A stretch of DNA of 48,569 nucleotides. Origin: an uncultured Bacteroidales bacterium (GTDB lineage Bacteria; Bacteroidota; Bacteroidia; Bacteroidales; Dysgonomonadaceae). The DNA is taken from the NCBI GenBank assembly GCA_964293155.1, contig CAXYYA010000028.1:1-48569 (forward strand), written 5' to 3'. The notes under the pieces are model-generated. The model was not told the DNA's origin and did no database searches. It worked only from the letters and a program-made list of their open reading frames with translations. How positions within the stretch are numbered: the first letter of the stretch is position 1; every line of letters begins with the position of its first letter. Below, piece by piece: positions 4,335-38,161 of this stretch. The position numbers and the translations under genes were made by a program.

Positions 4335-5906
4335 ATGAAAAGAAAGTTTATATATATAATTAATATAGCAATTGCAGCACTGCTTTTTTCATGTACGAAT
4401 CTTAACGAAGATGTATATGATAAAATACCCGCAGACGAATTCGGAAACACTCAGGCTCAGATAAACTCCATTATTGCACCTATTTACAGGACACTGACAG
4501 GTCTGTGGCCCGGTGATGGTTTTGTTATTGCGGAAGAAGTTGGAGATATGGCCATTACACCGACAAGAACCGGTGGTGACTGGTGGGACGGCGGTATTCA
4601 CATGGAACTCGGACGTCACGTTTGGCAACCCCGAAACGGCGCGATTAACGGTTTGTGGAATACGGCAAGTAACGGCACGTCAACCTGTAATAAAATTATG
4701 GCCATTATTGAGGCAAACAAGTCGCTCGATGAAACTCAAAAACAGGCTGTGTATGCCGAGATCAGGGGCGTAAGGGCATTTTGGTATTATATTTTTCTGG
4801 ATTACTTTGGAAATGTACCTTTAGTAACGAGTTTCAATGATCAGGAGTTGCCTGCAACCAAGACCAGAAAAGAAGTATATGATTTTGTTGTAAGTGAGTT
4901 GAACGCGATAAAAGACCTGCTTCCCGCCGATGTTTCAGCCAAAACATACGGAAAGTTTACCAAAGGAGCCGCATATTTTCTGTTGGCGAAAATGTACCTC
5001 AATGCCGAGATATTTACCGGAACATTAACAGCTAACTCCTTTACAAAAGGAGCAGCCGAATGGCAAAAAACCATTGATGCCTGCGATGCGGTTTTGGACT
5101 TGCCTTATATCCTTGAACCAACATGGACACTGAATTTTGCCGTGAATAACGAAGCATCGAAAGAGATAATCTTCCCGTGTGTATTCACAAAGAAAGAATG
5201 GGGTAATTACATCCTTCACCGCACGTTGCATTACAAAGATCCCATCGCGTTGGGCATAAGTATCAGTCCTTGGAACGGTATTAGTGCAGTGCCGGATTAT
5301 GTAAACAGTTTCGATAACGCTGATAAGCGAAAAGCATGGTCGTTCCTTACCGGACCTATGATTGATCCGGCTACGGGTACCGTTTTATATACGCAGCACG
5401 GCAGGCCGTTGATTCACACCGTGGATATTCCCATGATCGCCGGAACAACGAGTAAATATGATGGTGTTTGGGGAGAAGTGGAACAAGAAGTCGGTGCAAG
5501 ATGTTTCAAATGGGCTATCGAACCCGGTATGTCGGCAACGTCTGAAAACGATTTTGCATTTTTCCGTTTAGCAGATGTTTATCTGATGAAAGCGGAAGCA
5601 TTGGCCAGACTGGGAAGAACAGCCGAAGCTTTGCCATTGGTTAACGCGGTAAGAACGCGTGCTTTTGATGATAAAACAAAATTATTGACTGCCGTAACGC
5701 TGAATGATATTTATAAAGAACGTCGTTTTGAGTTGGCGTGGGAGTGCTATACGCGTCAGGATATGATCCGTTTTGGAACGTTCACCGCTCCGCATTTTTT
5801 GAAACCGGAAGTAACGCCAATTTATCGCATCTTGTTACCGATACCTGTTCAGGCATTGGAGGCGAATAATAAACTGACACAGAATCCGGGATATCCTGGT
5901 TTATGA
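4335..5906 (+). CDS. SusD/RagB-family nutrient-binding outer membrane lipoprotein
   Basis: 523 aa with a lipoprotein signal (LLFSCTN). It sits 19 bp after the SusC-like gene. TPR-like helical content and length are typical of SusD partners. Confidence 0.85.
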   Translation: MKRKFIYIINIAIAALLFSCTNLNEDVYDKIPADEFGNTQAQINSIIAPIYRTLTGLWPGDGFVIAEEVGDMAITPTRTGGDWWDGGIHMELGRHVWQPRNGAINGLWNTASNGTSTCNKIMAIIEANKSLDETQKQAVYAEIRGVRAFWYYIFLDYFGNVPLVTSFNDQELPATKTRKEVYDFVVSELNAIKDLLPADVSAKTYGKFTKGAAYFLLAKMYLNAEIFTGTLTANSFTKGAAEWQKTIDACDAVLDLPYILEPTWTLNFAVNNEASKEIIFPCVFTKKEWGNYILHRTLHYKDPIALGISISPWNGISAVPDYVNSFDNADKRKAWSFLTGPMIDPATGTVLYTQHGRPLIHTVDIPMIAGTTSKYDGVWGEVEQEVGARCFKWAIEPGMSATSENDFAFFRLADVYLMKAEALARLGRTAEALPLVNAVRTRAFDDKTKLLTAVTLNDIYKERRFELAWECYTRQDMIRFGTFTAPHFLKPEVTPIYRILLPIPVQALEANNKLTQNPGYPGL

Positions 5907-6012: not shown

Positions 6013-7374
6013 CTATTTGGAAATCGCTTTACCCAATTCTTCACCCGAAACCAATTTCTGTTCTCCCGATTTCATATCCTTCAACGTAATTTTACCTTCC
6101 TTCATTTCGTTTTCTCCCATTAACGCGACAAAAGGGATATTGTTGCTGTCGGCATACGACAGTTGTTTCTTCATTTTGGCGGCTTCGGGATAAATTTCGG
6201 CACAAATTCCTTTGTTTCGCAATTGGGCGAGGAGAGGCAAGATATAAGATTCTTCCTTATCGCCGAAATTCACAAAAAGCACATCGGTGGCGTGTGTAGA
6301 GTTTTCGGGGAAAAGGTTGAGTTGGTTGAGCACATCGTAAATGCGGTCGGCACCGAAGGAGATGCCGACACCCGATACGCCCGGCAGTCCGAAAATGCCC
6401 GTCAGGTTATCGTAACGGCCGCCGCCGGTGATGCTACCGATCTCTGCGTCAAGCGCTTTTACTTCGATAATAGCGCCGGTATAATAGTTGAGTCCGCGGG
6501 CAAGGGTAAGGTCGAGTTCAAGTTCGCAACCGATGCTTAATAAACCGGTTTTGTTGAGAATAAATTCCAGCTCCTCCACACCTTTCAATCCGGTTTGGGA
6601 GACCGAAAGCACGCTTTTCAGCGTTGCAAGTTTGTCGTTGTTCGTGCCTTCGAGCAATATGATAGGCTGCAATTGTTGAATAGCGGCTTCGGAGATTCCT
6701 TTTTCCCGAAGTTCTTCGTTCACCTTTTCCAACCCGATTTTATCCAATTTATCGATAGCCACCGTGATGTCGGTAATTTTATCGGCTTCGCCGATGATTT
6801 CGGCAATTCCCGAAAGTATTTTTCGGTTGTTGAGTTTTACGGATACACGGATATTTAATCTGCGAAAAACTTCATCAATGATCTGGATCAGTTCCACTTC
6901 GTTGAGCAGCGAATCAGAACCCACCACATCGGCGTCGCATTGAAAAAATTCGCGATAACGACCCTTTTGCGGACGGTCGGCACGCCACACGGGCTGAATC
7001 TGAAACCGCTTGAATGGAAACGAAATTTCGTTGCGGTGCATTACCACGTAGCGGGCAAACGGTACGGTAAGGTCGTATCGCAATCCTTTTTCCGAAATTT
7101 TGTTGGCGGTTTTAGCCGAGTTTCCTTCGGTAACGTCATCGGCGTGCATACTCGACAGGAAATCGCCCGAGTTCAATATCTTAAACAGCAGTTTATCGCC
7201 TTCTTCGCCGTATTTTCCCATCAATGTGGAAAGGTTTTCCATGGCGGGCGTTTCGATCTGGCGGAAGCCATATAGGCGGTACACTTCTTTAATGGTGTCG
7301 AAAATATAGTTGCGTTTCGCCATCTCTTCGGGCGAAAAATCGCGCGTTCCTTTGGGTATGGACGGTTTTTGCAT
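6013..7374 (-). CDS. hisS: Histidine--tRNA ligase
   Basis: 453 aa. The N-terminus [18 protein letters not shown] is the class-II HisRS motif-1 region. Length and the anticodon-binding C-domain are consistent. Confidence 0.95.
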
Positions 7375-22987: not shown

Positions 22988-23142
22988 CGTAATTTATCCT
23001 ATATTTTTATTGGGCTACAAAGATAGTGAAAATGCTTTATTTGGCAAAGACGTAAAGTTTATCCGCAATGTTTCGAGGCTGAGAATTTTCAGTAGTCATG
23101 GCTAAAGCCGGTGTTCACGTTTGCTGGGTTCTCCGCTTTAAA

Positions 23143-23291
23143 CAGGCTGTGTAAGAAACATCGCAACAGTATCATTTTGTCATTCCGACGATAGGAGGAA
23201 TCTTTATTTGTCATAAATTATAAACTCTTCACTCCGCAAAGCTGCGTTCAGAGTGACAAAAAGACACCTAATTTTCATTTTTACACAGCCT
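23143..23291. mobile_element. Second copy of the inner-family MITE, 149 bp and about 97 percent identical to 9536-9683
   Basis: Same TIRs and internal sequence. It is flanked by TTAAA/CTAAA. An isolated outer-family terminus, ATTGCGGATAATCA, lies at 23316-23329. Confidence 0.6.
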
Positions 23292-23850
23292 CTAAAAGCA
23301 GGGTTATTAAGACGTATTGCGGATAATCAAAAAAATGACTATTTTTGTGAACGGGAAAAACATTTGTAAATGCCCATTAATTTGGTTGATTATTAAATCG
23401 CATAAATGAAGATGTTGGCAACGATTTGTAAATGTAAACTACAAAAATTTGGTAAATGGACAAGATTTGGTTAATAACAATAGCAACTGCAATTTTTTTG
23501 ATCATAAATTTTCTTTTTTATAAAACGCTCAACGTGTATTACAAAGAGGAATTTGGCAAAAAGACGTGAAAATTAGGAGGAGGGAGAATATACTTTTGGC
23601 AGGCATCAATAATTGTCAGCACAATAGGTGCGTTGATAGCAATTTATTTTTTAAAATAGTAAACGTTCATCACACCCTTCCCGCTTACGCGGATTTCTCG
23701 TCATAACGAGCGCACAGGTTCGAGCGGTAATCGGTGTGTGCCGCAGGCAAGAGTTTACTTCGTAACACACGCTTTGCAAAAGCGCGCGAGCACAAGCGGG
23801 ACACGAAGTTTGTAACTTCGTGAACGAAGGCACAGCCATCGTCTCCCAAT

Positions 23851-23893
23851 AAAAAAATCCGCCAAACGCTTCATCGCTTGGCGGATTTTTTAT
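23851..23893. terminator. Bidirectional intrinsic terminator
   Basis: AAAAAAATCCGCCAA-ACGCTTCATCGC-TTGGCGGATTTTTTA. It lies directly after the stop of the 23913-24743 minus-strand gene, and the plus-strand side also carries a T-run. Confidence 0.6.
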
Positions 23894-23912
23894 ACAGTTG
23901 ATCTTTAAATTT

Positions 23913-24743
23913 CTACAAAGGTATTAAGTAAAATGCCGACACGGAAAACCCTGAACTTACTTTATAATCGGCAGCGCTATCTTTCGTAAACGGGAAATTG
24001 AGCGAATATCCAAATTGCAGCTCAAAATTGCCCAAATTTACACTCAAGGGGAGAAACAGCTGGACGTTTAACAAGCCGAATACTTCCTCGGGAGTGGTTG
24101 CAAGGTTTATGGTTTCTTTGGCAAAATAGCCCGAAATTTCAGGGCCGAAATAAAAACGGTTGTTTTTCCCAAAATCTAAAAAATAAAAACCGGCAAAAAC
24201 GCTCGGACTGAGCGTATAGAATGTCTGACTCCCGAAAAGCAAATTGTTGGAGATACGTGCTCCATACCAGTCTTTTCGGTACGAAAGCGTTAAGTTGGCA
24301 TTGTTTTCATAGGGATAAATGGCTGTGGTGTCGGAATTGTAAATGAGACGGCTGTATGAACCGCTGGCTCTGAAGTGCTTGCTTTTATCCAGGTAAAGGC
24401 CGTATCCAAGCGTCAGCATTGTTGTGGTGTAGCCGGGCGAAAGCTGGTCGTACCATATTCCGGATGCTCCTGCAAAGAGTCCGTATTTGCTGAAATAATA
24501 AACGTGACCACTTACATTCGCTAAGTCGGTACCGATTTCTCTGCCTGCAAAGAACGTTTTATTATTGTAATTAAGGCCTGCGTACAAAAAGTCTTTCTTT
24601 TCACTAATTATTTCAGACAATAAAGTTTCATCACTAAATATCAAATCATTTAGTAATGAGTCAATTCTATCGGTTTGAGCGGCGGCTGAAATACCGTATA
24701 GAAGGAACAATATAAAGAATGCTTTTTTCATATGTTTATTCAT
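23913..24743 (-). CDS. Secreted, probably outer-membrane protein of unknown function
   Basis: 276 aa with a signal peptide (FFILFLLYGISAAAQ). The composition is aromatic/Gly-rich and beta-strand-like. Confidence 0.5.
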   Translation of the reverse strand: MNKHMKKAFFILFLLYGISAAAQTDRIDSLLNDLIFSDETLLSEIISEKKDFLYAGLNYNNKTFFAGREIGTDLANVSGHVYYFSKYGLFAGASGIWYDQLSPGYTTTMLTLGYGLYLDKSKHFRASGSYSRLIYNSDTTAIYPYENNANLTLSYRKDWYGARISNNLLFGSQTFYTLSPSVFAGFYFLDFGKNNRFYFGPEISGYFAKETINLATTPEEVFGLLNVQLFLPLSVNLGNFELQFGYSLNFPFTKDSAADYKVSSGFSVSAFYLIPL

Positions 24744-24916
24744 TGATTTTTACATTATGGTCACATAGCTCATTCGAACGTACGAGAGAACACGCGTTTT
24801 AATTAATCCCCTGTTTCAAAATTATTCCGGTATGGCAGTTATTCCAATACCTTTAATAAAAACTTTTGAAAGAGCGTGAGCTCTTTCAAAAGTAATTTAA
24901 TTTTCATAATTAAGGT

Positions 24917-25558
24917 TTATTTGCCGCCACCTTTCATGCCGCCACCTTTTCCACCACCTTCGCCAAGCTGCTGCATTTGTTGCTGCATTTGCTGTTGCTG
25001 GCTGCCGGTAGATATATTCTGGTGTTCTCTGATTTGGTTGCGTTGTTGTTCCTTAACCTGTTCTTTGGTTTGCGTTGCAACTCCTTTGTTCAACCGGTTT
25101 TGATCTCTATACTGCAATTTCAGCATATTGCGTTGTTCTTCCGACAGAGAATTCATAAAGGCTTCTCTTTTTTCAGCTCTGGTCATCGTTTGGTTTTGAA
25201 GCAATTCAATTTGTTCGGGGGTAAGAGAGTTCTTGAATTGTTCGCGATTTCTCTGATTTACCATGCTCTGAATATCAGCATTTACCTGATTCCCTGTTGC
25301 TGAATGTAACCGATCCCGATCCCTCTGTTGCAATTGGTCAGCATCTTCAAGCGGATCGTGAATGCGGTCTCTTGTCTGGTCTTTCAACTGATCTTTCAGT
25401 TGATCTTTAGTTTGATCTTTGGTCTGATCTTTCAATTGATCCTTTTTTTCAATTTTGGTTTGGTCTTTTGCTCTTATAGGTGTGGTTTGAGCAAATGTAT
25501 TTGCGGCTAAAAAAAGAAAAGCTACAAATAAAACTCCGAAGATTGATTTTGTTTTCAT
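24917..25558 (-). CDS. Secreted LTXXQ-motif (Spy/CpxP-like) protein with KDQ[T/L] tetrapeptide repeats and a Gln/Gly-rich tail
   Basis: Signal peptide present. (KDQT/KDQL) x7 repeats. SLTPEQIELLQN...REAFMNSLSEEQRNMLKLQ are LTXXQ-type helices. The C-terminus is QQQQMQQQMQQLGEGGGKGGGMKGGGK. Confidence 0.6.
   Translation of the reverse strand: MKTKSIFGVLFVAFLFLAANTFAQTTPIRAKDQTKIEKKDQLKDQTKDQTKDQLKDQLKDQTRDRIHDPLEDADQLQQRDRDRLHSATGNQVNADIQSMVNQRNREQFKNSLTPEQIELLQNQTMTRAEKREAFMNSLSEEQRNMLKLQYRDQNRLNKGVATQTKEQVKEQQRNQIREHQNISTGSQQQQMQQQMQQLGEGGGKGGGMKGGGK
25368..25450. repeat. 12-bp tandem repeat (TGATCTTTNNNT, about 7 units) inside the LTXXQ gene, encoding KDQT/KDQL
   Basis: Visible directly as CTTTCAACTGATCTTTCAGTTGATCTTTAGTTTGATCTTTGGTCTGATCTTTCAATTGATC. 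Confidence 0.7.
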
Positions 25559-25691
25559 AATTCTTGTTTTTAATAATTAATTCGTTTCCGTTTTGTATAA
25601 GATAACCGAACAAGTCTTGTAATACCCTACTTTTTTATTGAGATTTTTTCAATTAAATACTTTTTTTACTTTGAAAGGCGGTTCCAGCGGT

Positions 25692-26948
25692 TTATCTTGG
25701 AGATTGTTTTCCGCCTTCTCTTCTCATTCCGCCACCTTCTTTTTCAACCGGAGTGTTGGACAACTGGTTTTTACGATTCCGTTGTTCATCTTTCACGTTC
25801 TCTTTTATTCCGTCTTTGTGAACATCTTTGCCGAATTCTATTTCAGTGTTTTGATCCCTGAGCAATTGTCTTTGTTCGTTTGTAAGGGATTTAATGAACG
25901 CTTTCTGTCTTTCAGTTCTGCTCAACGTTTTGTCTTCCAGAATGTCGAGTTGCTTTTGGGTCAGTGAGTTTCTGAATCGGTTTTTAGCCGGTTCCGCATT
26001 ATTGTCTGCTGTTTCCCCCTGGCGATTTTGAAGATTCGTGCGTTCCTGATTTTCGGTTTGCAGTTTTGTCTCCGCTTCGTCTAGTAAGTTTTTAATTTCG
26101 TTTAAATGATTTTCCTTTAGCTCATTCGACAAATTCGGTTCTACTTTTAACGGGGTTGGCTCCTGCAACTGAATTTTCTCCTGACTCATCGTTCTCTGCC
26201 TTTCCGGTTCGGGTTTCATTTCGTCTTTTGGAATGACGGCAGGTTTTTCTTCCGTGATATTCATATCTTTTTCTTCTACGGCTACAGTTACTTCCGGAGT
26301 TACCTCAGTAGGATTGTTGTGATGCTGAGAAATAATTTCGAACTGTTTATCCGCCTTCAGCCTTGCTTTCTGACCGGTCGTTATCACAACTTCGTTTTTT
26401 TCGGCAAACTCCACAAGCATCACTTTTCCATGTTCGCAATTCACCTGGTATTCATTTTCGCGAGCCGTTACCAAAAATCGTGTTCCTAAAACCACCGTTT
26501 TGGCCTTTTCAGAAACAACTTCGAACCTACTTCCGCTTTCCACTTCAAAATAAGCTTCGCCGTTTAGCTTTGTTGTCCGGCTGAACTTCCACAGCAAAGG
26601 TTTGTAGCTCAGCGACGAATTGGCGTGCAACACCACCTTGGAATTGTCCGGCAAAAGAAAACTCTTTTCAGCTATCACGGTTTTCACATTCTTTGTATAT
26701 AATGTTGCTGTAACAGCAAATGAAACCAATAAAGCGATCGAGGCTACTGCCGCGTATTTCAACAGTTGGAAATACCGGACGGGCTGAACTTTCTTCCCGG
26801 TTGGGTTAGCATCCAGTTTTGCTTCCATTTCCATCCAAATATCCTCTTTGGACCTGATCCATTGAGGTCGGGTGTTGGAAATGATATCTTCTACTTCCTT
26901 CGAAAATACGATATTTTCTTTTTCGGAATATGTATGTTTAATAATCAT
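25692..26948 (-). CDS. FecR-family anti-sigma factor with an extra C-terminal LTXXQ (Spy/CpxP-like) periplasmic domain
   Basis: 418 aa. The cytoplasmic N-domain is followed by one TM helix (AAVASIALLVSFAVTA) and a FecR domain (VVLHANSSLSYKP...GEAYFEVE...TRFLV). The C-terminus NSLTQKQLDILEDKTLSRTERQKAFIKSLTNEQRQLLRDQ matches the neighbouring secreted protein. Confidence 0.8.
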   Translation of the reverse strand: MIIKHTYSEKENIVFSKEVEDIISNTRPQWIRSKEDIWMEMEAKLDANPTGKKVQPVRYFQLLKYAAVASIALLVSFAVTATLYTKNVKTVIAEKSFLLPDNSKVVLHANSSLSYKPLLWKFSRTTKLNGEAYFEVESGSRFEVVSEKAKTVVLGTRFLVTARENEYQVNCEHGKVMLVEFAEKNEVVITTGQKARLKADKQFEIISQHHNNPTEVTPEVTVAVEEKDMNITEEKPAVIPKDEMKPEPERQRTMSQEKIQLQEPTPLKVEPNLSNELKENHLNEIKNLLDEAETKLQTENQERTNLQNRQGETADNNAEPAKNRFRNSLTQKQLDILEDKTLSRTERQKAFIKSLTNEQRQLLRDQNTEIEFGKDVHKDGIKENVKDEQRNRKNQLSNTPVEKEGGGMRREGGKQSPR

Positions 26949-26957
26949 AGGGTTTGG

Positions 26958-27440
26958 TTATAATAATGATTTTTTCAAAAATTGTAATGCTGCACTCATT
27001 CGTTTTTCTACAGCTTTCACACTTAAGCCCAGACGTTCGGCAATTTCCCAGTATTTCAAGCCCTCAATCCTCGACATTAGAAATACGGCTCGTTGCTTTT
27101 CGTTCAAACTGTTAAGTGCGATTTTATACTTTTCAAGTAACTCTTTGTGACTCAATGTATCTTCTGTCGAAGGCTCGTTACCGTAATAACGGATCGAAGC
27201 TATATAGTTCATTTCCAATACATCACGTCTATATTTACTAACAAACATGTCACCGGCAATTTTATAGAGGAGACGTTTTGCTGTTGTTTTATCTACCTCG
27301 AATTGTTTCTCCCAAAGCCGCATAAAAACCTCCTGTGCTATGTCTGAAGCATCATCCGGCCCCGCACCTCTATAATACAGGTAACCCCGTACCGAATCGA
27401 AGTAGGTATCGAACAAATATTTAAAATCCTCTTTTGTCAA
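26958..27440 (-). CDS. ECF (sigma-70 family) RNA polymerase sigma factor
   Basis: 160 aa. Region 2 is DIAQEVFMRLWEK and region 4 is KYWEIAERLGLSVKAVEKRMSAAL. It ends 9 bp before the anti-sigma gene start. Confidence 0.85.
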   Translation of the reverse strand: MTKEDFKYLFDTYFDSVRGYLYYRGAGPDDASDIAQEVFMRLWEKQFEVDKTTAKRLLYKIAGDMFVSKYRRDVLEMNYIASIRYYGNEPSTEDTLSHKELLEKYKIALNSLNEKQRAVFLMSRIEGLKYWEIAERLGLSVKAVEKRMSAALQFLKKSLL

Positions 27441-27708
27441 AATACAATGTACTTAACTTTGTTAGTATCCGAATGAATAAGCAAATACCCTACAATTTTT
27501 ATTATTATTCTTAATAAATTCCCGAAAATTATGAAAAATCAGGCATTTCAGGAAGATACCCATGAGTTTATTTCAACTTTTTTGACGATAAATAAACCGG
27601 CATTTTAAGTGGCACCGTGCTCAGCTATTTTTTCGCTGAATAAGGAATGGGCAATGCCGCAAGAAACGTTAGTGCCCGGTTTTATAATAAACAATATAAA
27701 TAAAGCGC

Positions 27709-28323
27709 TTATTTCACCAAATTCAAACCATCCTTTGCCGATTGATCCGTTGGCGAGATAATGAGAACCGTGTTGAAAAGCCGTTGCGCATCGTTCTTTT
27801 TCCCGAGGAAATATTTTGTCCAGGCGCTCATCAGCGTAGAGTAATAATCGAACGGATACATCTGTTGCACCAAATCGAAATATTTCTCGGCTTCCATAAA
27901 GTTTTTCCGATAATAATAAATGTTTCCCAGCGCGTAATTTACCCGCGAATTCACCTTGTCCAGCAAAAGAATTTTTTTGTAAACCGCTTCCAATTCATCG
28001 GTTTTTTTCTGCGCTTCCAGCGGATAGCACAGGCCGAGCAGCGCTTCAACCGCTTTAGGAGCTATGTCCACCGCTTTTTGGTAAAATTTCTTGCTGCTTT
28101 CGTAATCTTTGGAAAGATAATACAACCAACCCATTCTCAGAAATTTATGATAATCGAATCCATTCAGGCTGTTTAATTCGCTGATGGCTTTCTGGTAATC
28201 GCCTGACGACTCGTACTGATAACTGTTTGCAAAAACCTGCGAAGGATTCACCTGTGCCGATGCGGTAATTAAGCCCGCCGCCAGCAGAAAGGTGAGTACC
28301 GTTTTTTTAATTAAAAGTTCCAT
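27709..28323 (-). CDS. Secreted TPR-repeat protein
   Basis: 204 aa with a signal peptide. The TPR-like repeats are rich in Y, K, A and L. Its start overlaps the upstream gene stop by 13 nt. Confidence 0.65.
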   Translation of the reverse strand: MELLIKKTVLTFLLAAGLITASAQVNPSQVFANSYQYESSGDYQKAISELNSLNGFDYHKFLRMGWLYYLSKDYESSKKFYQKAVDIAPKAVEALLGLCYPLEAQKKTDELEAVYKKILLLDKVNSRVNYALGNIYYYRKNFMEAEKYFDLVQQMYPFDYYSTLMSAWTKYFLGKKNDAQRLFNTVLIISPTDQSAKDGLNLVK

Positions 28324-29696
28324 TGTAACGCGAGATTTAAAAGATGATTATTATATTTGTATGTTGTGTAATTGGTTGACGAATAGGCGTATCCTTCCCT
28401 TTGTTGCCATTGATATCCGGCCGATAACATGGTTTTTTTGATAAAATAGGAGAGGGAAGCACCCGCAAGGGCTTTAACGGGATCGTACGTGTCGTAAACT
28501 AAAAATGAGTGCCCGGTAATGTAATTTTGATGATTCCCGATGCTGAACGCCCCATCCAGCCACAGCGATTTGGCTAATTTTACACCCAAATTTTGAGAAA
28601 AAACAACTTGTGTGCCTGTCCAGGCGTTTTGGTTGTAGATGGCTGCAAGAGCGGTTGTTCCGTAAAAATCGAGGTTTCCCAGCGGATAATAAGTGAGCGA
28701 TCCTTTTGCCTGATACTGATGTCCGCCGCCGAAATTGGAATAAGCCACGGCAATTTCGGGCAAGGTGTACGCAGAGCGTTTGTTAAGAAATGCCAGCATG
28801 GAGAAAGCCGAAATCGTGTTTCCGGTTGATGCGGTGTAATATATGGAAGGATAATAAAAACCGCCTCCGCCAGGGCCCCCGCCTCCTCCACCCGGGCCGT
28901 ATCCGCCGGCACGCGTTCCCATAGTGGCAGATGCAACAGCGGTCGTAGTGTACGGGATCGCTTTATCAATCTTTTCGATGTTGTAATACGCGCCGGCAAA
29001 TCCCCAGGTAACGTTATTATCCGAGAAAAAATCAAATCCGGCGATCAATTGATGTTGAGACAATCTCTCTTCTTTTACCAATCCCGTGCTGTTTGACCGC
29101 TGAAACTTGGTGTTATACAGTTGATATCCGAGTTTTAGCTTGGCCTTGTCGGAGAGTTTAAACCCAACGCCCAGCGTAGTGAATACCATATCCTGAAACT
29201 GGTTCAGCGAATCGTAGCCCATAAAATTTGAACGCAGATCGGGTTTGTTGTCGTTCGTAAGATAACCGCCTGAGAGCGCAATAAAATCCATCGCCGAAGG
29301 CGAATATCCGATAGCGGCCTGCGTGTGTGGCGCGAGCGATTTGGCAAGTATATCGGCATTGTTTTTCTGGCCGCTCAGCAGGTAGGCGTAATACAGGCTT
29401 TCCAACAGAGCCGGCTCGGTGGAAGTTTCTGCAAGCGTTTTTTTGTAAAATTCCGCCGCTTTGGCATAATTTTTCAGTTCATAATAAGCAATAGCGGTGC
29501 GGTAATTCAGATAATAAAAATCAATGTTTTGCGCCTGCGCCTGTTTGCTGGTCTCAATCAGATTTTTATAATCCTTTTGCAGGTATTGCTGATAGGTAAT
29601 GCTGTCAATGCGGGTTGCTTCCGGGCTTTGTTGCGCCTGTAGCGCAAACGTCCACATCATCATTACCGTTGCGAATGTTATACCCATTCGATACAT
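28311..29696 (-). CDS. Outer-membrane protein with an N-terminal TPR-like region and a C-terminal beta-barrel-like domain with a Gly-rich loop
   Basis: 461 aa with a signal peptide. TPR-like helices are followed by a GGYGPGGGGGGPGGGG tract. The strand pattern alternates aromatic/hydrophobic residues and the protein ends NLALQWNF (terminal Phe). Confidence 0.5.
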   Translation of the reverse strand: MYRMGITFATVMMMWTFALQAQQSPEATRIDSITYQQYLQKDYKNLIETSKQAQAQNIDFYYLNYRTAIAYYELKNYAKAAEFYKKTLAETSTEPALLESLYYAYLLSGQKNNADILAKSLAPHTQAAIGYSPSAMDFIALSGGYLTNDNKPDLRSNFMGYDSLNQFQDMVFTTLGVGFKLSDKAKLKLGYQLYNTKFQRSNSTGLVKEERLSQHQLIAGFDFFSDNNVTWGFAGAYYNIEKIDKAIPYTTTAVASATMGTRAGGYGPGGGGGGPGGGGFYYPSIYYTASTGNTISAFSMLAFLNKRSAYTLPEIAVAYSNFGGGHQYQAKGSLTYYPLGNLDFYGTTALAAIYNQNAWTGTQVVFSQNLGVKLAKSLWLDGAFSIGNHQNYITGHSFLVYDTYDPVKALAGASLSYFIKKTMLSAGYQWQQREGYAYSSTNYTTYKYNNHLLNLALQWNF

Positions 29697-31870
29697 AAGA
29701 CATGTTTTTTAGTGTTAATTTCCATTCTGTTTTTTATTACCGTGATAGTTGATTCTTTCACCGGCATTTTTATATTGAACGACTTAGCGTCTATAATGCT
29801 TTGATATACAATTTTTTCAGGATAAAAAATATGATCCGATTCCGTTAATTGCGAACGGTAATTTATGGTTGTGAAAATAACAAAAGGCGCCAAAAAATCC
29901 TGAAACCAACGCGTTCCGAAGGGGTGTTCCTTGGTAAGCGGTATTTTATCGGTAACGGAGATCTCTTTTTCGTTGGACAGCAATAATTTAAAGCAACTAC
30001 GGTAAAACAAATACAACGGCGATGATTTTCTTCCTTCAAAATCGGTAAAATAGAACATGGTGCCATCGTTTTCCACGTACGCCACGGCTTTCGATTTTTC
30101 GCAACGGATGTAGGTTTTGTTGTATTCGTCGGTAGCAATTGTCCAGGGATAATTTTCGTTGTCGTAGGTAACTTTCAGCAACCGGCCCGGTTTGCCTTCG
30201 AAAGCATCTTGCGCCAGCAACGAAGGAACTACGTTGAAGATCGTAGTATCCTGTTTCGGAACCTCGCCGATGTGCAAGAGCGGCTTACCGGCTGTTTTTT
30301 CAAAGAAATAACCCATGGGGTACGCATGTGTTGCCGACCCGATTTCGGGCGACAACTGCACCTGAAAATGAAGGTGCGGCTCCGGCGAACGTCCCGAATT
30401 GCCGCATGCGGCAAGTACGGTTCCTTTTGTTACATAATCGCCGGTTCGCACGTTAAAACTGTCTTTTTTAAGGTGGCTTAGCTGCGAGTATAACCCGTTC
30501 AAATGATTGATAATGATCGTATTTCCCCAATTCTTTTTCGTGTTTACATCATTTATTTCATTGTCTTCGGTAATGTTGCTGATCATGTACACATAACCGT
30601 CGGCCGGAGCCAACACCGGTTTGTTGTAACAGTAAAAATCTTCTTTCTGCGCACACCGGCCGAAACACGTTTTTCCTTCTTCGTCCGTGATCATAAAATC
30701 CAACGCTTTTCCCCATGCGCCCAGGTGGGTTATTGTACCGTTGTAGCCCTGCGTTACACGCCATTCTCCCAAAAAAGGCAATTGCATTTTAAACAGCATG
30801 TTTTGTGCGAAACGCTGCATGTAATTCACGTTTTTATATACCGTTTTCTCGGGATTATAATATTGAATATACGGAAAAATAAAGAACCGGCTAAAGCTGC
30901 GTTGTTTGAGAATGAACAGTACGAGAATGGATAAAAGACTGAATGATAATGTGTAAGAAGACAGCCCGGTATCCGATATCAAACTCTCCACGCTGGCATA
31001 AAACAGAAACAGGGCGGGCGTGAGGCCAATGACCAGTATGTAGCTGTAGATGTTGGGGATGATAAAGAAGCTTCCGATTGCCATTCCCCAGAAAATGTAG
31101 TTAACGCCAGCCAGATCCTGCGTGAGTTCTGCGATATCCACGCCAAGCAATTTACTGATGATAAATGCAAAGAAAAATCCAAAAAATGCTACCGTGGATT
31201 TGATGCGTGAGTGAAAAAGCAATGCAACGGCTATGATGATGCCGACTAACACGCTGTCGGTAAAGAAAATGGATGCCAATGTTTTAAAATAATAAAACAA
31301 CATGGGCGGCAAGTGCGCATTATCGAGTGAGTGGACGAAAGTGTACCACGGTACTTTCATTTGCCCGGCCAACACGATGGTGAAACGGTCGAACGGAATA
31401 ATGTACTCAATGTTCGTGAACGATTTTACCGAAAGATCAACGATGAACAACGTGAAAACAAACGGCAGAGTAAGCACGGGAATATCGTGCTTCGCAAAAA
31501 CCGATTCGAGCCATACCGTGAACATGAATACCAGAATAACCGATAAAACAAAAAGAATAATGAACGAGCCGTTCACGTAAAATTTGTAAACCAGACTCAA
31601 CCCGACAAAAACGGCGTTAAATCCGTACAATCCGCTCTTGATCCTTTTCTTCGAAAATCCGAGCCCGTGCGCGATGATGTTCGTCAGAACCACAGCCGAA
31701 AGTCCGCCCAATCCCAGCCGGATGTCCAGCATGCTAAGCACCAGCAAGATGATCGCTAACCACCTGCTTTGCGAGAAAAATATCATGGCATAGCTGTTCA
31801 GCGTGCCATCGAGATACATCAACGCGTATGATTTGAGACTTTGTTTCATTTGTTTATGATTTCGGGACAA
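29678..31870 (-). CDS. Polytopic membrane protein (urea-transporter-like duplicated domain) fused to a C-terminal M23/LytM zinc metallopeptidase domain
   Basis: 730 aa. The first ~330 aa hold about 10 TM segments with internally repeated GLYGFNAVFVG / LAGVNYIFWG and LTLPF motifs. The M23 motifs are HLGAWGKALD ... GNSGRSPEPHLHFQV. The stop overlaps the downstream gene start by 19 nt. Confidence 0.7.
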   Translation of the reverse strand: MSRNHKQMKQSLKSYALMYLDGTLNSYAMIFFSQSRWLAIILLVLSMLDIRLGLGGLSAVVLTNIIAHGLGFSKKRIKSGLYGFNAVFVGLSLVYKFYVNGSFIILFVLSVILVFMFTVWLESVFAKHDIPVLTLPFVFTLFIVDLSVKSFTNIEYIIPFDRFTIVLAGQMKVPWYTFVHSLDNAHLPPMLFYYFKTLASIFFTDSVLVGIIIAVALLFHSRIKSTVAFFGFFFAFIISKLLGVDIAELTQDLAGVNYIFWGMAIGSFFIIPNIYSYILVIGLTPALFLFYASVESLISDTGLSSYTLSFSLLSILVLFILKQRSFSRFFIFPYIQYYNPEKTVYKNVNYMQRFAQNMLFKMQLPFLGEWRVTQGYNGTITHLGAWGKALDFMITDEEGKTCFGRCAQKEDFYCYNKPVLAPADGYVYMISNITEDNEINDVNTKKNWGNTIIINHLNGLYSQLSHLKKDSFNVRTGDYVTKGTVLAACGNSGRSPEPHLHFQVQLSPEIGSATHAYPMGYFFEKTAGKPLLHIGEVPKQDTTIFNVVPSLLAQDAFEGKPGRLLKVTYDNENYPWTIATDEYNKTYIRCEKSKAVAYVENDGTMFYFTDFEGRKSSPLYLFYRSCFKLLLSNEKEISVTDKIPLTKEHPFGTRWFQDFLAPFVIFTTINYRSQLTESDHIFYPEKIVYQSIIDAKSFNIKMPVKESTITVIKNRMEINTKKHVLCIEWV

Positions 31871-34719: not shown

Positions 34720-35328
34720 TTACGGTTGTACGATATCGGAGAACTGTGACAAATTTAATACTTTTGGTTGATAATCAATGCCTCTGCGCGATAAATTTCG
34801 TACAAACGCCCGCAAATGGTTCTCCGAAGCGCGCAAGAGGTTGGAATAAATCCGTTGGATATCGGGATTGTCGGTTTTCTGCAAGTGCGATTGCAGGTCT
34901 TCGATATCCTGTTCTTCGATCAACGCTCCGGCTTGCAGCGCCTCGATGAGCGTTGTGCCTTTGGTGAGCTCGGTGTACATTTTCTGTAACTCACGATTGG
35001 TAAACACGCCTTCCGCTTTCGCGAGGTCTTTTAACCCATACGTATCCACAAGCCACATCATGGCGTTCTGGTGCACCGTTTCGCTACGCGAAATATTTCG
35101 GAAGATAGGGATGCTATACTGCCGGGCGTAAAACGTATAAACGTCGTGGGCAAGTTTTTCTTCTTCGCGCATGTACTCAATGCTTTGGATGTCGGCCTTC
35201 GTCAGATTTTGCGTTGAAGCCGGTATTCCCATCGTCTTATTCTGTGTGGTTTTAGCCCCATCGGCAGCTTGGGGCAACAAAAGTATTGCCCCTGCCGCGA
35301 TCAGAATGAATAAATATTTTGTTTTCAT
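34720..35328 (-). CDS. Exported DUF2202-like (ferritin-like superfamily) protein, paralog 1
   Basis: 202 aa with a signal peptide. YMREEEKLAHDVY...SETVHQNAM...LRASENHLRAF is a ferritin-like four-helix pattern of E/H ligands. Confidence 0.6.
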   Translation of the reverse strand: MKTKYLFILIAAGAILLLPQAADGAKTTQNKTMGIPASTQNLTKADIQSIEYMREEEKLAHDVYTFYARQYSIPIFRNISRSETVHQNAMMWLVDTYGLKDLAKAEGVFTNRELQKMYTELTKGTTLIEALQAGALIEEQDIEDLQSHLQKTDNPDIQRIYSNLLRASENHLRAFVRNLSRRGIDYQPKVLNLSQFSDIVQP

Positions 35329-35332
35329 TTTT

Positions 35333-36025
35333 TTATGTGTTTATGATAGCGTTGAAATCATCGTTGCTCAATAATTGAGGTTGATATGCAATACCGTTGA
35401 ATTTGAGATTTGCGACAAAGGCTTTCAAATGAAACTGTGAAGCACGGAGTAGATTACCGTAAATTCTTTTGATAAACGGGTTTTCTGTTTCGGCTATTTC
35501 TCTTTGAAGATCAATAATATCGTGTTCTTCGATAAAAGCGCCGGCTTTGTAAGCATCTACAACTGTAAGGGCTTCGGTTGTAAGCTTTGTGTATAAATTT
35601 TGCAATTCTTCGATGTTAAATACCCCCGGTACCGTTTCGGCGGGAGTCTCAATTTTGTAGAGATTAATAAGCCAGGCGATAGCTTTTCCGTGTGCTATCT
35701 CGCTTTTGGAGATGTTGCTGAACACGGGTCTGGCGAATTTTTCGTTAAAATACACATACACATTATTGGCTAATTTTTCTTCTTCGCGCATGTACAGGAT
35801 GCTGTTTATTTCACTTTCGGTGAGTGGCGCGAGTTGCGTATTTGTCAACAAACAAAGCGAATCGGTGGTTGCAGCCAGTGTTGCATCAAGTCGCGTAGTT
35901 GAAACTGCGTTTATCAATGCGGCTTGTTCGGCATTTTCTTCCGGTGAATTTACGCTGTTCGCTTCACAACCGAAAAGCAAAATTGCAAGAAATGCCACGA
36001 CGGAAATTTTTTGATAAGTTTTCAT
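35333..36025 (-). CDS. Exported DUF2202-like (ferritin-like) lipoprotein, paralog 2
   Basis: 230 aa with a lipoprotein signal (LLFGCE). YMREEEKLANNVY...SEIAHGKAI...LRASQFHLKAF parallels the neighbour. It lies 4 bp upstream of paralog 1. Confidence 0.6.
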   Translation of the reverse strand: MKTYQKISVVAFLAILLFGCEANSVNSPEENAEQAALINAVSTTRLDATLAATTDSLCLLTNTQLAPLTESEINSILYMREEEKLANNVYVYFNEKFARPVFSNISKSEIAHGKAIAWLINLYKIETPAETVPGVFNIEELQNLYTKLTTEALTVVDAYKAGAFIEEHDIIDLQREIAETENPFIKRIYGNLLRASQFHLKAFVANLKFNGIAYQPQLLSNDDFNAIINT

Positions 36026-36079
36026 AATGAAAAAGTTGGTTTACTGTGATTAAGTTAATGAGATAAGCGTTTTGTAAGA

Positions 36080-36109
36080 AAAAATGGGGAGCGAATCCCC
36101 ATTTTTTTG
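36080..36109. terminator. Intrinsic terminator after the EF-hand-repeat gene
   Basis: AAAAAATGGGGA-GCGAA-TCCCCATTTTTTT. Confidence 0.6.
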
Positions 36110-36123
36110 TGGTTGGTGCGTGG

Positions 36124-36687
36124 TTATTTTGTGGTTTCCCTACGGTCGCAAATACCGTTTTTATTGGCGTCCACAAAATTTACCGCACTGCCTTTTCCAT
36201 TCCGAAGGCCGGTGCCTTTCCCTGTACCGCGTCCCTGGCGCGGTGTTCCGTTTTCGAAGTTGTCACAAATGCCGTCTTTGTCGGCATCTACGAAATTTGC
36301 TCCACCACCTCTGCCGTTACGCAGTCCGTTGCCATAGCCTTGTCCGCGTCCTCCACGGGGAGTTCCGTTTTCGAAATTGTCGCACACGCCATCTTTATCG
36401 GCATCCACAAAGAAGCGTCCTTGTCCTCTGCCGTTGCGTAATCCCTGGCCTTTGCCTTGTCCGCGGCCGCTACCGTCGAGCAGTCGTTGTTTGCCGTTGG
36501 CATTCGGATTTCCGGGTGTTCCGTTCTCGAAATTATCGCAAACGCCGTTGTTGTTTTTGTCCACAAATGCAGGTCCGGTTTGAGCGGTTTTCGCCGTTTC
36601 CTTTGCTGCCTGATTTTGATTTTGGGCGGTTGCTAATCCTATGGTGGCAACCAGCGCCATTGCAGTGATAAATACTTTTGTTTTCAT
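36124..36687 (-). CDS. Secreted protein with four canonical EF-hand calcium-binding loops separated by Gly/Arg-rich linkers
   Basis: 187 aa with a signal peptide. There are four repeats FVD(A/K)(D/N)K(D/N)G(V/I)CDNFENGTP, and each matches the EF-loop D-x-D-x-D-G-x-x-D-x-x-E and contains one Cys. The linkers are GRGQGKGQGLRNGRGQG. Confidence 0.6.
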   Translation of the reverse strand: MKTKVFITAMALVATIGLATAQNQNQAAKETAKTAQTGPAFVDKNNNGVCDNFENGTPGNPNANGKQRLLDGSGRGQGKGQGLRNGRGQGRFFVDADKDGVCDNFENGTPRGGRGQGYGNGLRNGRGGGANFVDADKDGICDNFENGTPRQGRGTGKGTGLRNGKGSAVNFVDANKNGICDRRETTK

Positions 36688-36717
36688 AATAATCTTATTT
36701 TTAATTGTTTATTTAAT

Positions 36718-37293
36718 TTATCTGGTTTCGTTCCAATCGCGTCCGTAGCGATGCCGGTATCCGCGTCCCATACCGAGACTGTCGGTTCGGTTATATCCGT
36801 ATCCGTACCCGCGACGGGCATTCACCGTTTCATCGCGATACAACGGTAGGAATGCTCTTTCTAATTGAGCGCACTGCGCGTCGTTGCACGCCGATTTTAT
36901 CTTCAGGTAGAAATCGTTTGTAAGCTTTTTCAGTTCTGCGTGATGATTTCCGATGTGATCCGATAACGCATTTAATTTTGTTTCGTCGGGTTTCGGTTTG
37001 TTCAACTCCATGAACATTTCGTTTTTCAGCGAATCCATTTCGTAAATCAGCAGGTTGGCACGGGGTTGAAATTCCCGGTTCGCTGCGCGAAAAACATCCA
37101 TCTGATCATTGTCGAATCCCAGCCTTTGCCGAAAATACCTTCCGGTGAGCGGGGGCTGGCCTTCGTCAATAACAATTGCTGTGTTATCGTCTTTTTCCTG
37201 CTGATTGTGATAGACGATAGTTCCGATGGTTGTCAGGTTCAGCACCACAAGCAGTGCAATTACCCACATCATTATTTTATTCGTCTTATTCAT
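36718..37293 (-). CDS. Membrane-anchored periplasmic Spy/CpxP/ZraP-like protein (periplasmic heavy-metal sensor family)
   Basis: 191 aa. An N-terminal TM anchor is followed by a helical domain (QMDVFRAANREFQ...HHAELKKLTNDFYLKI) and a Tyr/Gly/Arg-rich tail. It overlaps the upstream gene by 8 nt. Confidence 0.5.
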   Translation of the reverse strand: MNKTNKIMMWVIALLVVLNLTTIGTIVYHNQQEKDDNTAIVIDEGQPPLTGRYFRQRLGFDNDQMDVFRAANREFQPRANLLIYEMDSLKNEMFMELNKPKPDETKLNALSDHIGNHHAELKKLTNDFYLKIKSACNDAQCAQLERAFLPLYRDETVNARRGYGYGYNRTDSLGMGRGYRHRYGRDWNETR

Positions 37294-37579
37294 AATCGTC
37301 GAAATTATAATAGCCTAAATTCTCGATCTGACTGTCGTTTATGTTCATCGTAAACTCGTGAGAAACGCTTTTCTGGTAACTGTTACCGATGCTTACGCCT
37401 AAAAATGCAACGGCAGCAAGGCTGGCAGCCACAACCACAGTTTGCCAAACGGGCGTTCTGCGACGCTCCGGTTGTTGCCTTTTTTCGATTTCGGCCATCA
37501 CCCGCGTACTCAGGAACGGATTATGTTCCGTTTGCTTTTCGCGTTTGATGAAATCGTCTATGTACTGTTCCGTTTTCAT
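37286..37579 (-). CDS. Small single-pass membrane protein, putative anti-sigma factor
   Basis: 97 aa. A cytoplasmic N-terminus is followed by one TM helix (VWQTVVVAASLAAVAFLGVSI). It lies immediately downstream of an ECF sigma gene (36-bp gap). Confidence 0.4.
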   Translation of the reverse strand: MKTEQYIDDFIKREKQTEHNPFLSTRVMAEIEKRQQPERRRTPVWQTVVVAASLAAVAFLGVSIGNSYQKSVSHEFTMNINDSQIENLGYYNFDDYE

Positions 37580-37615
37580 TTTTTGTTCGTTTTATAGGTT
37601 AGACATTTGTATTGA

Positions 37616-38161
37616 TTATTTCCTACGGTCATATTCTAATTTTTTTTGCAGAGTGCTTTTTGCACGTTGTAAAAGTTGTTCCACAGCGCCTTCCGATTTT
37701 TTCATGACGGCGGCAATTTCTTTCTGCGGTAATTCTTCGTATTTACTCAGGATGAAAGCTGTTCGTTGCGAATCGGGCAGGGAATTGATGGCGTTTTTTA
37801 TCCGCTTGTCCCGTTCCGATTGTTCCAATCGTTCCAACGGCGTCTTTTCCTCACTCTGTTTGTGAAAGATGTTTTCCAACGATTCCACCACGCGGTTCTT
37901 CTTTTTTCGATTCACAAAATTGATACTCGCGTTTACGGTAATCCGGTACAGCCATGTAACAAATTGGGCTTCGCCCTTGAAATCGGGCAACGATTGATAT
38001 ATTTTAATGAAAACTTCCTGCGTGATATCTTCCGCATCTGCTTTGGAGTGCACAAAACCCAACGTCGTTCGGAACACCATACCCTGGTATTTCTCCATAA
38101 GTTCTTTAAAGACAATGGTGTTACCTGAAATTATTTCTTGTATGAGTTGCTCGTCCGACAT
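37616..38161 (-). CDS. ECF (sigma-70 family) RNA polymerase sigma factor
   Basis: 181 aa. Region 2 is DITQEVFIKIYQ and region 4 is LPQKEIAAVMKKSEGAVEQLLQRA. Confidence 0.85.
   Translation of the reverse strand: MSDEQLIQEIISGNTIVFKELMEKYQGMVFRTTLGFVHSKADAEDITQEVFIKIYQSLPDFKGEAQFVTWLYRITVNASINFVNRKKKNRVVESLENIFHKQSEEKTPLERLEQSERDKRIKNAINSLPDSQRTAFILSKYEELPQKEIAAVMKKSEGAVEQLLQRAKSTLQKKLEYDRRK

Follow-up and report, generated by a model that had tools for sequence, protein, structure and literature searches.

A FecR-type anti-sigma factor that ends in a copy of the secreted LTXXQ-like protein encoded beside it

FecR-type anti-sigma factors are thought to depend on an outer-membrane transducer, and the current question about them is how contact between their STN subdomain and the transducer controls proteolysis. 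What, then, takes the place of that contact where a FecR-type anti-sigma has no transducer beside it? The question is raised by a locus in a 48,569-nt stretch of DNA from an uncultured Bacteroidales bacterium (contig CAXYYA010000028.1; hereafter the window). Four consecutive minus-strand genes in the list of open reading frames (ORFs), within 23852-27493, form an extracytoplasmic function (ECF) module: a sigma factor, an anti-sigma, a secreted LTXXQ-like protein (hereafter sec) and a putative outer-membrane beta protein of 276 aa (Table 1). A sequence-only reading had described the first three genes as an ECF sigma and FecR-type anti-sigma pair without a transducer, followed by a secreted protein homologous to the C-terminus of the anti-sigma. 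All three ORFs lie where it placed them on the minus strand, and both domain assignments were matched. No TonB-dependent or SusC-like gene lies in or adjoins the module, and a scan of the whole window was also without a receptor homologue.

The resemblance between the anti-sigma and its neighbour is extensive. In a composition-adjusted BLASTP comparison, residues 246-391 of the anti-sigma aligned with residues 27-174 of sec at 31% identity (E=7e-14), the aligned stretch of sec amounting to essentially the entire mature protein. Smith-Waterman scores were compared with those of 1000 composition-preserving shuffles, and the real score was attained by 0/1000. The corresponding z values were 14.3 for the whole C-terminal half, 15.9 for a 54-aa motif, 4.5 for the flank preceding the motif and 2.3 for the part following it, so that the bulk of the signal comes from the motif, while the similarity of the flanks is weak in the window yet above chance. 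The homology claimed in the sequence-only reading is thereby borne out, and it is no artefact of low complexity. The tails of the two proteins are collinear (KENVKDEQRN in the anti-sigma aligned with KEQVKEQQRN in sec); in a branch comprising the related loci L003, L010 and L011 the post-motif tails are strongly similar (z=8-16), and the duplicated piece was therefore larger than the core. At the DNA level the two motif cores are ~57% identical, which indicates an old, maintained paralogy; recent gene conversion between the two copies is ruled out by the same figure. We conclude from these comparisons that the C-terminus of the anti-sigma is a true paralogue of the neighbouring secreted protein.

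What has this copy displaced? The sole Pfam match in the anti-sigma is FecR (PF04773; residues 95-176, E=1.2e-12, 48.5 bits against a cut-off of 24). FecR-type proteins are usually closed by a FecR_C domain; FecR_C (PF16344) gave no match to the anti-sigma at E<=1 in the Pfam scan, and phmmer with the FecR_C region of a relative of conventional architecture (locus L001, below) found nothing in the fused proteins, whereas short relatives do have the domain. The remaining architecture was derived from an AlphaFold2 model, built from an alignment with 15 homologues, and from residue conservation over 15 homologues of 31-83% identity. The N-terminal 56 residues, without a match in the Pfam scan, carry two tryptophans, W30 and W38, that are invariant across the homologues, and are presumed from their position to be the sigma-binding domain. 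Foldseek matched the periplasmic beta-subdomain to a Parabacteroides anti-sigma (4M0H, E=1e-10) and to the PupR CCSSD (6OVK, E=1e-7). Both matches span only about half of the target chain (TMt 0.52-0.54), which, as far as the model goes, is consistent with the FecR juxtamembrane subdomain alone being matched. The PupR domain combines a juxtamembrane subdomain with a C-terminal STN subdomain, and both must be present for transducer binding (PMC7186176); in the window anti-sigma the PupR-type juxtamembrane subdomain is present and the STN subdomain is absent.

Beyond the beta-subdomain lies a linker that differs in sequence and length between homologues and is modelled at a pLDDT of ~30 (residues 210-279), followed by a low-confidence helix (275-309). 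The tethered LTXXQ-like module comes next, and is predicted to form four short helices (321-376, pLDDT 85-89) that coincide with the conserved core. Across the 15 homologues this motif is the best-conserved part of the C-terminal half, with 12 invariant residues (F325, S328, L329, Q333, I336, L337, F351, L355, E358, Q359, L362 and L363).

The free copy has the layout of an exported protein. A typical Sec signal peptide (MKTKSIFGVLFVAFLFLAANTFA followed by Q; aa 1-23), judged by eye from the sequence, is followed by KDQ repeats, the LTXXQ module (aa 101-154; 25097-25258) and a Gln/Gly-rich tail. The earlier reading had called the protein secreted and had picked out the KDQ repeats (a tandem array in the DNA) and the QQQMQQ and GGGK elements of the tail, and all of these are there; the orthologues of sec in related loci likewise carry a signal peptide and the motif. 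Gln/Gly tails are found in both sec and the anti-sigma. The shared core (FKNSLTPEQIELLQNQTMTRAEKREAFMNSLSEEQRNML in sec) is a ~45-aa double 'SLTxxQ' unit, with two LTXXQ-type motifs in each protein (sec has SLTPEQ and SLSEEQ, the anti-sigma SLTQKQ and SLTNEQ). The number of (K/R)DQ(L/T) units differs widely between loci, ~6 in the window against ~13 in the sec of L004 (L004 8399-9196), and the KDQ tract looks like a fast-evolving disordered spacer.

That sec is Spy/CpxP-like, as had also been proposed, held only in part. Full-length sec had no Pfam match at E<=1 and no NCBIfam match, while its isolated 54-aa motif reached 24.1 bits on PF07813, the LTXXQ family (E=6.3e-5), 0.2 bit under the cut-off of 24.3; motif segments of relatives matched PF07813 at E<=10 in 9/15 cases. 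PF13801 gave no better than E=0.42 on the motif, i.e. no match. An exhaustive HMMER search of 1.84 billion representatives with a profile of the 54-aa core returned 273 proteins at E<=1e-3, fusion and sec-type proteins included. Numerous among them are secreted proteins of ~150 aa built from four LTxxQ units in tandem (E=1e-12 to 1e-17). The PF07813 cut-off was passed, at 24.8-29.5 bits, by the top matches P0069 and P0070 (199 and 236 aa) and by two ~150-aa proteins, P0078 and P0084, and hhalign placed our motif alignment (A2, in which the tethered segment is included) on the central two units of the ~150-aa family with 99.5% probability (E=2e-22). The motif is thus homologous to LTXXQ proteins that pass the Pfam threshold. 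A profile search of the PDB with the motif found none of the solved Spy, CpxP and ZraP structures at E<=10, and the profile of the four-repeat family found CpxP at E=0.85-1.6 only, which is not significant; the best PDB matches (a designed helical repeat, protein A through 'EEQRNAFIQSL', and TFAM) were dismissed as short-motif coincidences. We therefore read sec and the tethered module as a divergent branch of the LTXXQ world rather than as demonstrable Spy or CpxP homologues.

Word-indexed searches were of limited use with such a protein. Full-length sec, whose low complexity defeats the index, recovered one relative only (P0001), and the 54-aa motif profile just 2 short fragments. The match to P0001 nevertheless led to L001, a locus of classical type that bears on the origin of the module.

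The fusion is not peculiar to the window. A database entry, 'FecR family protein [Petrimonas sp.]', matches the window anti-sigma with 100% identity, and a homology search with the anti-sigma returned 19 long proteins (404-446 aa) with FecR as their only domain and near-full coverage, followed by many ~290-aa proteins with FecR and FecR_C that matched its N-terminal half only. The core-profile search gave at least 19 clusters (at 50% identity) of 400-450-aa fusion proteins carrying the motif; ten new fusion clusters were checked, and 10/10 matched Pfam FecR only. We surveyed the neighbourhood in ten fused loci (the window, L002, L003, L004, L008, L010, L011, L049, L050 and one JGI gene table). 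A cassette of sigma gene (160-161 aa), fusion protein, sec (195-299 aa) and a 272-318-aa protein was present in 10/10, and a TonB-dependent receptor in 0/10 (by DNA scans, and from the gene table for the tenth), while the genes flanking the cassette varied. The architecture that had been noticed in the window is thus kept throughout the loci surveyed. Among 185,579 species representatives, near-full matches to the fusion protein occurred at four loci only (L008, L010, L011 and L012), with partial matches at L009 and L028. In L009 a single ORF (4689-5732; P0010, 334 aa, 75% identity) carries both sigma-70 and FecR domains, and the locus lies within ~400 nt of a contig end (locus position 6090); this ORF is either a real fusion or a frameshift or assembly artefact.

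How did the fusion arise? The gene order in L001 is sigma, a 292-aa FecR protein with FecR_C, an 847-aa TonB-dependent receptor, sec and a 300-aa protein, and ten loci in all have this classical five-gene form (L001, L006, L007, L013-L016, L020, L025 and L026). The L001 sigma is 51% identical to that of the window, and the TonB-dependent receptors in the closest short relatives are 811-868 aa long. The N-terminus of the L001 receptor gave a weak match to the STN-like FecR_C model, ahead of a carboxypeptidase-regulatory-like domain, as expected of a signalling transducer. Neighbour joining on the FecR N-terminal region groups the fused loci in a single clade, and its outgroups are all classical. 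A tree of the core unites the tethered copies in a clade whose sister group is made up of the free copies from the same fused loci; the classical free copies fall outside, and tethered and free copies show a matching internal split. Both trees are short and without bootstrap support. They nevertheless concur on a single event, in which sec was duplicated, FecR_C and the receptor were lost and the copy was fused in frame, followed by parallel divergence. These trees and gene orders indicate that the module descends from a classical TonB-dependent cell-surface-signalling (CSS) locus, and that a single, old event removed the transducer gene and put a copy of sec, comprising linker, double-LTXXQ module and tail, where the STN subdomain (FecR_C) had been. 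Both the free sec gene and the gene at the end of the module outlasted the receptor.

The sigma factor matches Pfam Sigma70_r2 (PF04542), Sigma70_r4_2 (PF08281) and Sigma70_ECF (PF07638). It has no regions besides sigma-2 and sigma-4, and clears the cut-off of the ECF superfamily model TIGR02937 (72.3 bits against 42.9); on the Bacteroidota subfamily model TIGR02985 it scores 112.6, under the cut-off of 126.4. The anti-sigma starts 10 nt past the sigma stop codon on the same strand (26958 to 26948), an arrangement common to all related loci.

A motif of the form GTAGGGTATT-N10-TTCGG(A/T)TA occurs twice in the window, against 0.07 matches expected: once before the sigma gene (GTAGGGTATT-N10-TTCGGATA) and once before sec (GTAGGGTATT-N10-TTCGGTTA). 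In its relaxed form, TAGGGT-N15-CGG[AT], it has 69 matches in 499 kb of related loci, where chance would give about 2 on a naive estimate; all are on the strand of the module, 31 of them preceding the sigma gene and 18 preceding sec, and in L049 and L050 too it precedes both genes. We infer that this motif is the cognate ECF promoter, through which the sigma factor would autoregulate and drive sec. No copy was found before the gene for the 276-aa protein, which is separated from sec by a perfect hairpin and T-run, probably a partial terminator or attenuator; similar hairpins, read by eye, stand at the equivalent position in L002, L006 and L007. In seven further classical loci (L017, L018, L021, L033, L029, L034 and L036) the relaxed motif lies ~50-250 nt after the gene for the TonB-dependent receptor. 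Hidden Markov models (HMMs) found no sec gene in these seven loci, and other, unrecognised regulon genes may sit there.

The last protein of the module is conserved along with sec. It is 35% identical (E=3e-48) to its 300-aa counterpart in L001, and an HMM built for it found a homologue in every fused locus and in the 10 classical loci, always after sec. Sequence searches of Pfam, NCBIfam and the PDB gave no match to it, even when a profile of 13 sequences was used. It begins with a typical Sec signal peptide (by eye) and its secondary structure is predicted to be all-beta; the single-sequence AlphaFold2 model was poor (pLDDT 38) and was used for secondary structure alone. It may be an outer-membrane beta-barrel, and it represents an undescribed family. 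Members of the ~280-aa family follow the secreted LTXXQ protein in receptor-containing and receptor-less loci alike.

What might a tethered copy of sec do for the anti-sigma? In the resting state of CSS systems the STN subdomain of the anti-sigma binds the signalling domain of the transducer, protecting the anti-sigma from proteolysis (PMC11637429, PMC7186176). Since that signalling domain itself has the STN fold, the classical tethered domain pairs with its own fold on a regulon-encoded partner, and by analogy the domain swap may have kept the principle that 'like pairs with like' while changing the fold. Among LTXXQ proteins, CpxP, Spy and ZraP form homo-oligomers, and CpxP inhibits its own inducing sensor. 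Taken together, the like-with-like pairing of the classical systems, the homo-oligomeric nature of these proteins and the feedback exerted by CpxP make a model in which sec binds its tethered copy the most economical. The tethered module would take over the job of the lost STN subdomain, that of holding a regulon-encoded partner of the same fold, and the likeliest partner would be free sec, held by homotypic LTXXQ-LTXXQ pairing. With free sec bound, the periplasmic end of the anti-sigma would be shielded and the sigma factor would stay sequestered. If free sec were titrated, for example by envelope clients, or degraded, that end would become exposed and could be cut by a periplasmic protease, after which intramembrane proteolysis would release the sigma factor; fresh sec would then shut the system off again. 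Substitution of a sec copy for the receptor-docking end has probably created a self-contained feedback sensor. The tethered module and the sigma-induced free protein would pair or compete, in a feedback resembling that of CpxP or FoxA, and we give this model of sec binding its tethered copy a little less than an even chance. The wider statement is more doubtful and we offer it tentatively: that this is the first described ECF anti-sigma to use a tethered copy of a regulon protein as its sensor, with paralogues that heterodimerise so that the pathway gauges its own free output, in a receptor-independent descendant of CSS whose intermediates are extant.

Several observations weigh against this account. 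Tethered and free motifs share only 35-43% identity and differ systematically (ILED against LLQN, SLTQKQ against SLTPEQ), a divergence that, to judge from the sequences, could mean divergent partners. Sec and the ~280-aa protein also occur in classical loci, whose anti-sigma has no LTXXQ module; since these are receptor-dependent loci, the two proteins have a role of their own, which for sec does not depend on binding the anti-sigma. Membership of the LTXXQ family is marginal, with no significant match to solved CpxP or Spy, the promoters are assigned from conservation of a motif alone, and the fused examples all come from metagenome-assembled, uncultured Bacteroidota (Bacteroidales, Paludibacteraceae and Petrimonas).

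The presence of sec in classical loci, downstream of the TonB-dependent receptor, means that it predates the fusion and probably handles something periplasmic. The tethered module could then bind the periplasmic ligand or client of sec rather than sec itself, with ligand triggering proteolysis of the anti-sigma and induced sec buffering the ligand. Spy, ZraP and CnrX, relatives within LTXXQ and PF13801, act as chaperones or metal sensors; in addition, conserved hydrophobic and Gln positions are common to both copies, and the same window holds an ECF module containing a PF13801 protein. The ligand might be unfolded envelope proteins, a metal or a compound once imported by the lost receptor. Against this idea, no particular ligand can be singled out, the motif lacks conserved His, Cys or Met residues suggestive of metal binding, and a module of 45 aa would make a small binding site of its own without oligomerisation. 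We consider sensing of a shared ligand unlikely. Less probable still is that the long linker lets the tethered module dock on the 276-aa protein, which would be both the normal partner of sec and a substitute transducer, with free sec competing for it. The 276-aa protein is kept in 10/10 fused loci, and the ~110-aa disordered linker resembles periplasm-spanning spacers such as that of TonB. An outer-membrane partner for the anti-sigma C-terminus would also have its precedent in CSS (PMC7186176). Nevertheless, the barrel fold and outer-membrane location of the 276-aa protein are putative (pLDDT 38, no family match), and its gene has no promoter motif and is set off from sec by the hairpin. Both alternatives keep the competition between free and tethered copies and change only the partner.

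Lys, Glu, Gln and Asp abound in both proteins, most of whose sequence beyond the motif is disordered; together with the weak flank similarity in the window, this might suggest a compositional artefact or the decaying relic of an accidental gene fusion, without function. We regard this as very improbable: the E value of 7e-14 is composition-adjusted and no shuffle in 1000 attained the score, the 12 invariant motif residues persist in homologues down to 31% identity, the architecture is retained in at least 19 clusters at 50% identity, and DNA copies only ~57% identical are old and maintained. In view of this conservation across the sequences, a non-functional relic is essentially excluded.

The module can be compared with several known systems. 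Like the CSS systems (FecI/FecR/FecA, PupI/PupR/PupB, FoxI/FoxR/FoxA and the FecI-like groups of Bacteroidota that are paired with FecR-type anti-sigmas), it has a FecI-like sigma gene directly before an anti-sigma with a periplasmic FecR beta-subdomain, predicted to be single-pass with a short cytoplasmic N-terminus, a putative autoregulatory promoter motif at the sigma gene, and complete CSS loci as its nearest relatives. Unlike them it lacks a TonB-dependent transducer, and a ~110-aa linker and an LTXXQ-like helical module stand in the anti-sigma instead of STN (FecR_C). In CpxP-CpxA and ZraP-ZraS feedback, a periplasmic LTXXQ protein induced by stress inhibits its own inducing sensor. With these the module shares a secreted protein with two LTXXQ-type motifs that is apparently controlled by the pathway it is proposed to regulate, and a proposed logic of negative feedback by a titratable periplasmic protein. 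The chassis, however, is an ECF sigma/anti-sigma pair and not a two-component system, and the sensor, unlike CpxA and ZraS, itself carries a paralogous LTXXQ module. In CnrH/CnrY/CnrX, and in the common operons of a sigma factor, a zf-HC2 anti-sigma and a PF13801 'periplasmic heavy-metal sensor', a helical LTXXQ-related periplasmic protein is likewise the sensory component of an ECF module, and the second ECF module of the window (34720-38161, below) is of this kind; CnrX-type systems have a separate sensor acting on a minimal anti-sigma, whereas the window has one fused and one free copy and no conserved metal-ligand residues in the motif.

The nearest published precedent found is ECF241, as described in the ECF classification (PMC7826278). 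Its members are FecI-like ECFs that come mostly from Bacteroidetes; their putative anti-sigma has two transmembrane helices and no FecR domain, and sometimes matches PF13801 (heavy-metal resistance, LTXXQ-related). There, too, the extracytoplasmic part of the anti-sigma is related to LTXXQ/Metal_resist rather than to FecR_C, and no transducer is required. By that description the window anti-sigma stands apart, having one predicted transmembrane helix, a cytoplasmic part at its N-terminus, a genuine FecR domain (PF04773) and no PF13801 match; the group description mentions no adjacent free paralogue, whereas the window encodes one next door (PMC7826278). Full-text literature searches (FecR with LTXXQ, LTXXQ with anti-sigma, CpxP with ECF sigma and Bacteroidota) found no description of a FecR-LTXXQ fusion.

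The clade is a natural experiment, in which docking subdomain and transducer disappeared jointly and their place was taken by a copy of a periplasmic LTXXQ protein of the regulon, with loci of ancestral type extant. If the copies pair, the module would be a compact and transplantable design for a feedback sensor, an independent test of the model, reported for FoxA-FoxR, in which the partner protects the anti-sigma, and a first functional handle on the widespread, unstudied small secreted LTXXQ-repeat proteins of Bacteroidota and on the ~280-aa beta protein. If they do not, it would still be a clean case of sensor-domain swapping in ECF signalling.

Table 1. Genes, protein regions and transcription signals of the module, in window coordinates
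Feature	Position	Strand	Basis
ECF sigma factor, 160 aa, FecI-like Bacteroidota type	26958-27440	-	Pfam, NCBIfam
FecR-type anti-sigma, 418 aa, fused to a copy of the LTXXQ-like sec	25692-26948	-	
Anti-sigma: cytoplasmic N-terminal region, aa 1-56, presumed sigma-binding	26781-26948	-	AlphaFold2 helices 17-25, 34-47
Anti-sigma: single transmembrane helix, aa 57-83, hydrophobic YAAVASIALLVSFAVTATLY	26700-26780	-	AlphaFold2 and sequence
Anti-sigma: periplasmic juxtamembrane FecR beta-subdomain, aa 86-207	26328-26693	-	PF04773; pLDDT ~90
Anti-sigma: charged Pro/Glu/Lys-rich linker, aa 208-317 (~110 aa), predicted mostly disordered	25998-26327	-	
Anti-sigma: tethered LTXXQ-like module, aa 318-376, core FRNSLTQKQLDILEDKTLSRTERQKAFIKSLTNEQRQLL	25821-25997	-	BLASTP, shuffles, conservation, model
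Anti-sigma: disordered Lys/Gln/Gly-rich C-terminal tail, aa 377-418, ending GGGMRREGGKQSPR	25695-25820	-	pLDDT <50
sec, 213-aa LTXXQ-like protein with signal peptide	24917-25558	-	
sec: tandem repeat encoding (K/R)DQ(L/T) units	25374-25468	-	Tandem Repeats Finder, periods 12, 24, 36
276-aa protein with signal peptide, predicted all-beta; last gene of module	23913-24743	-	
ECF-type promoter motif, GTAGGGTATT-N10-TTCGGATA, 25 nt (27441-27465) before sigma TTG start	27466-27493	-	
Second copy of promoter motif, GTAGGGTATT-N10-TTCGGTTA, 44 nt before sec start codon	25603-25630	-	
Perfect 14-bp hairpin then T-run, between sec and 276-aa gene	24862-24893	-	
Strong intrinsic terminator closing module	23852-23891	-	RNA fold -26 kcal/mol, z=-5.2, 17-bp stem and U-run

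The window holds a second ECF module, at 34720-38161 on the minus strand, with ~7.3 kb between it and the fused module. Its genes encode a sigma factor (37616-38161), a 97-aa single-transmembrane protein (37286-37579), a Metal_resist (PF13801) protein anchored in the membrane (36718-37293), a secreted protein of Cys/Gly repeats (36124-36687) with four 'FVDxDKDGxCDNFENGTP' units, and two ferritin-like DUF2202 proteins. In L008 (2406-4282), L003 (2563-5469) and L049 (2280-4266), the first four of these genes at least (sigma, small single-transmembrane, Metal_resist-type and Cys-repeat/MJ0753_N-like) are found directly upstream of the fused module. A relationship between sec and the PF13801 protein of the window was ruled out at the sequence level (BLASTP E=11).

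The ~900 nt between ffh and the module terminator (22988-23912) are free of Rfam matches and tRNAs and have no ORF of more than 62 aa; Rfam and tRNA scans of the whole window gave no match either. Upstream of the sigma gene, at 27709-29696 on the minus strand, two overlapping genes encode secreted TPR proteins of 204 and 461 aa, the larger with a Gly-rich stretch and a beta-rich C-terminal half; neither gene is conserved beside the module in other loci. Beyond them, at 29678-31870 on the minus strand, a 730-aa protein joins a urea-transporter membrane domain (PF03253, E=1e-44) to a C-terminal M23 peptidase (PF01551), an unusual combination.

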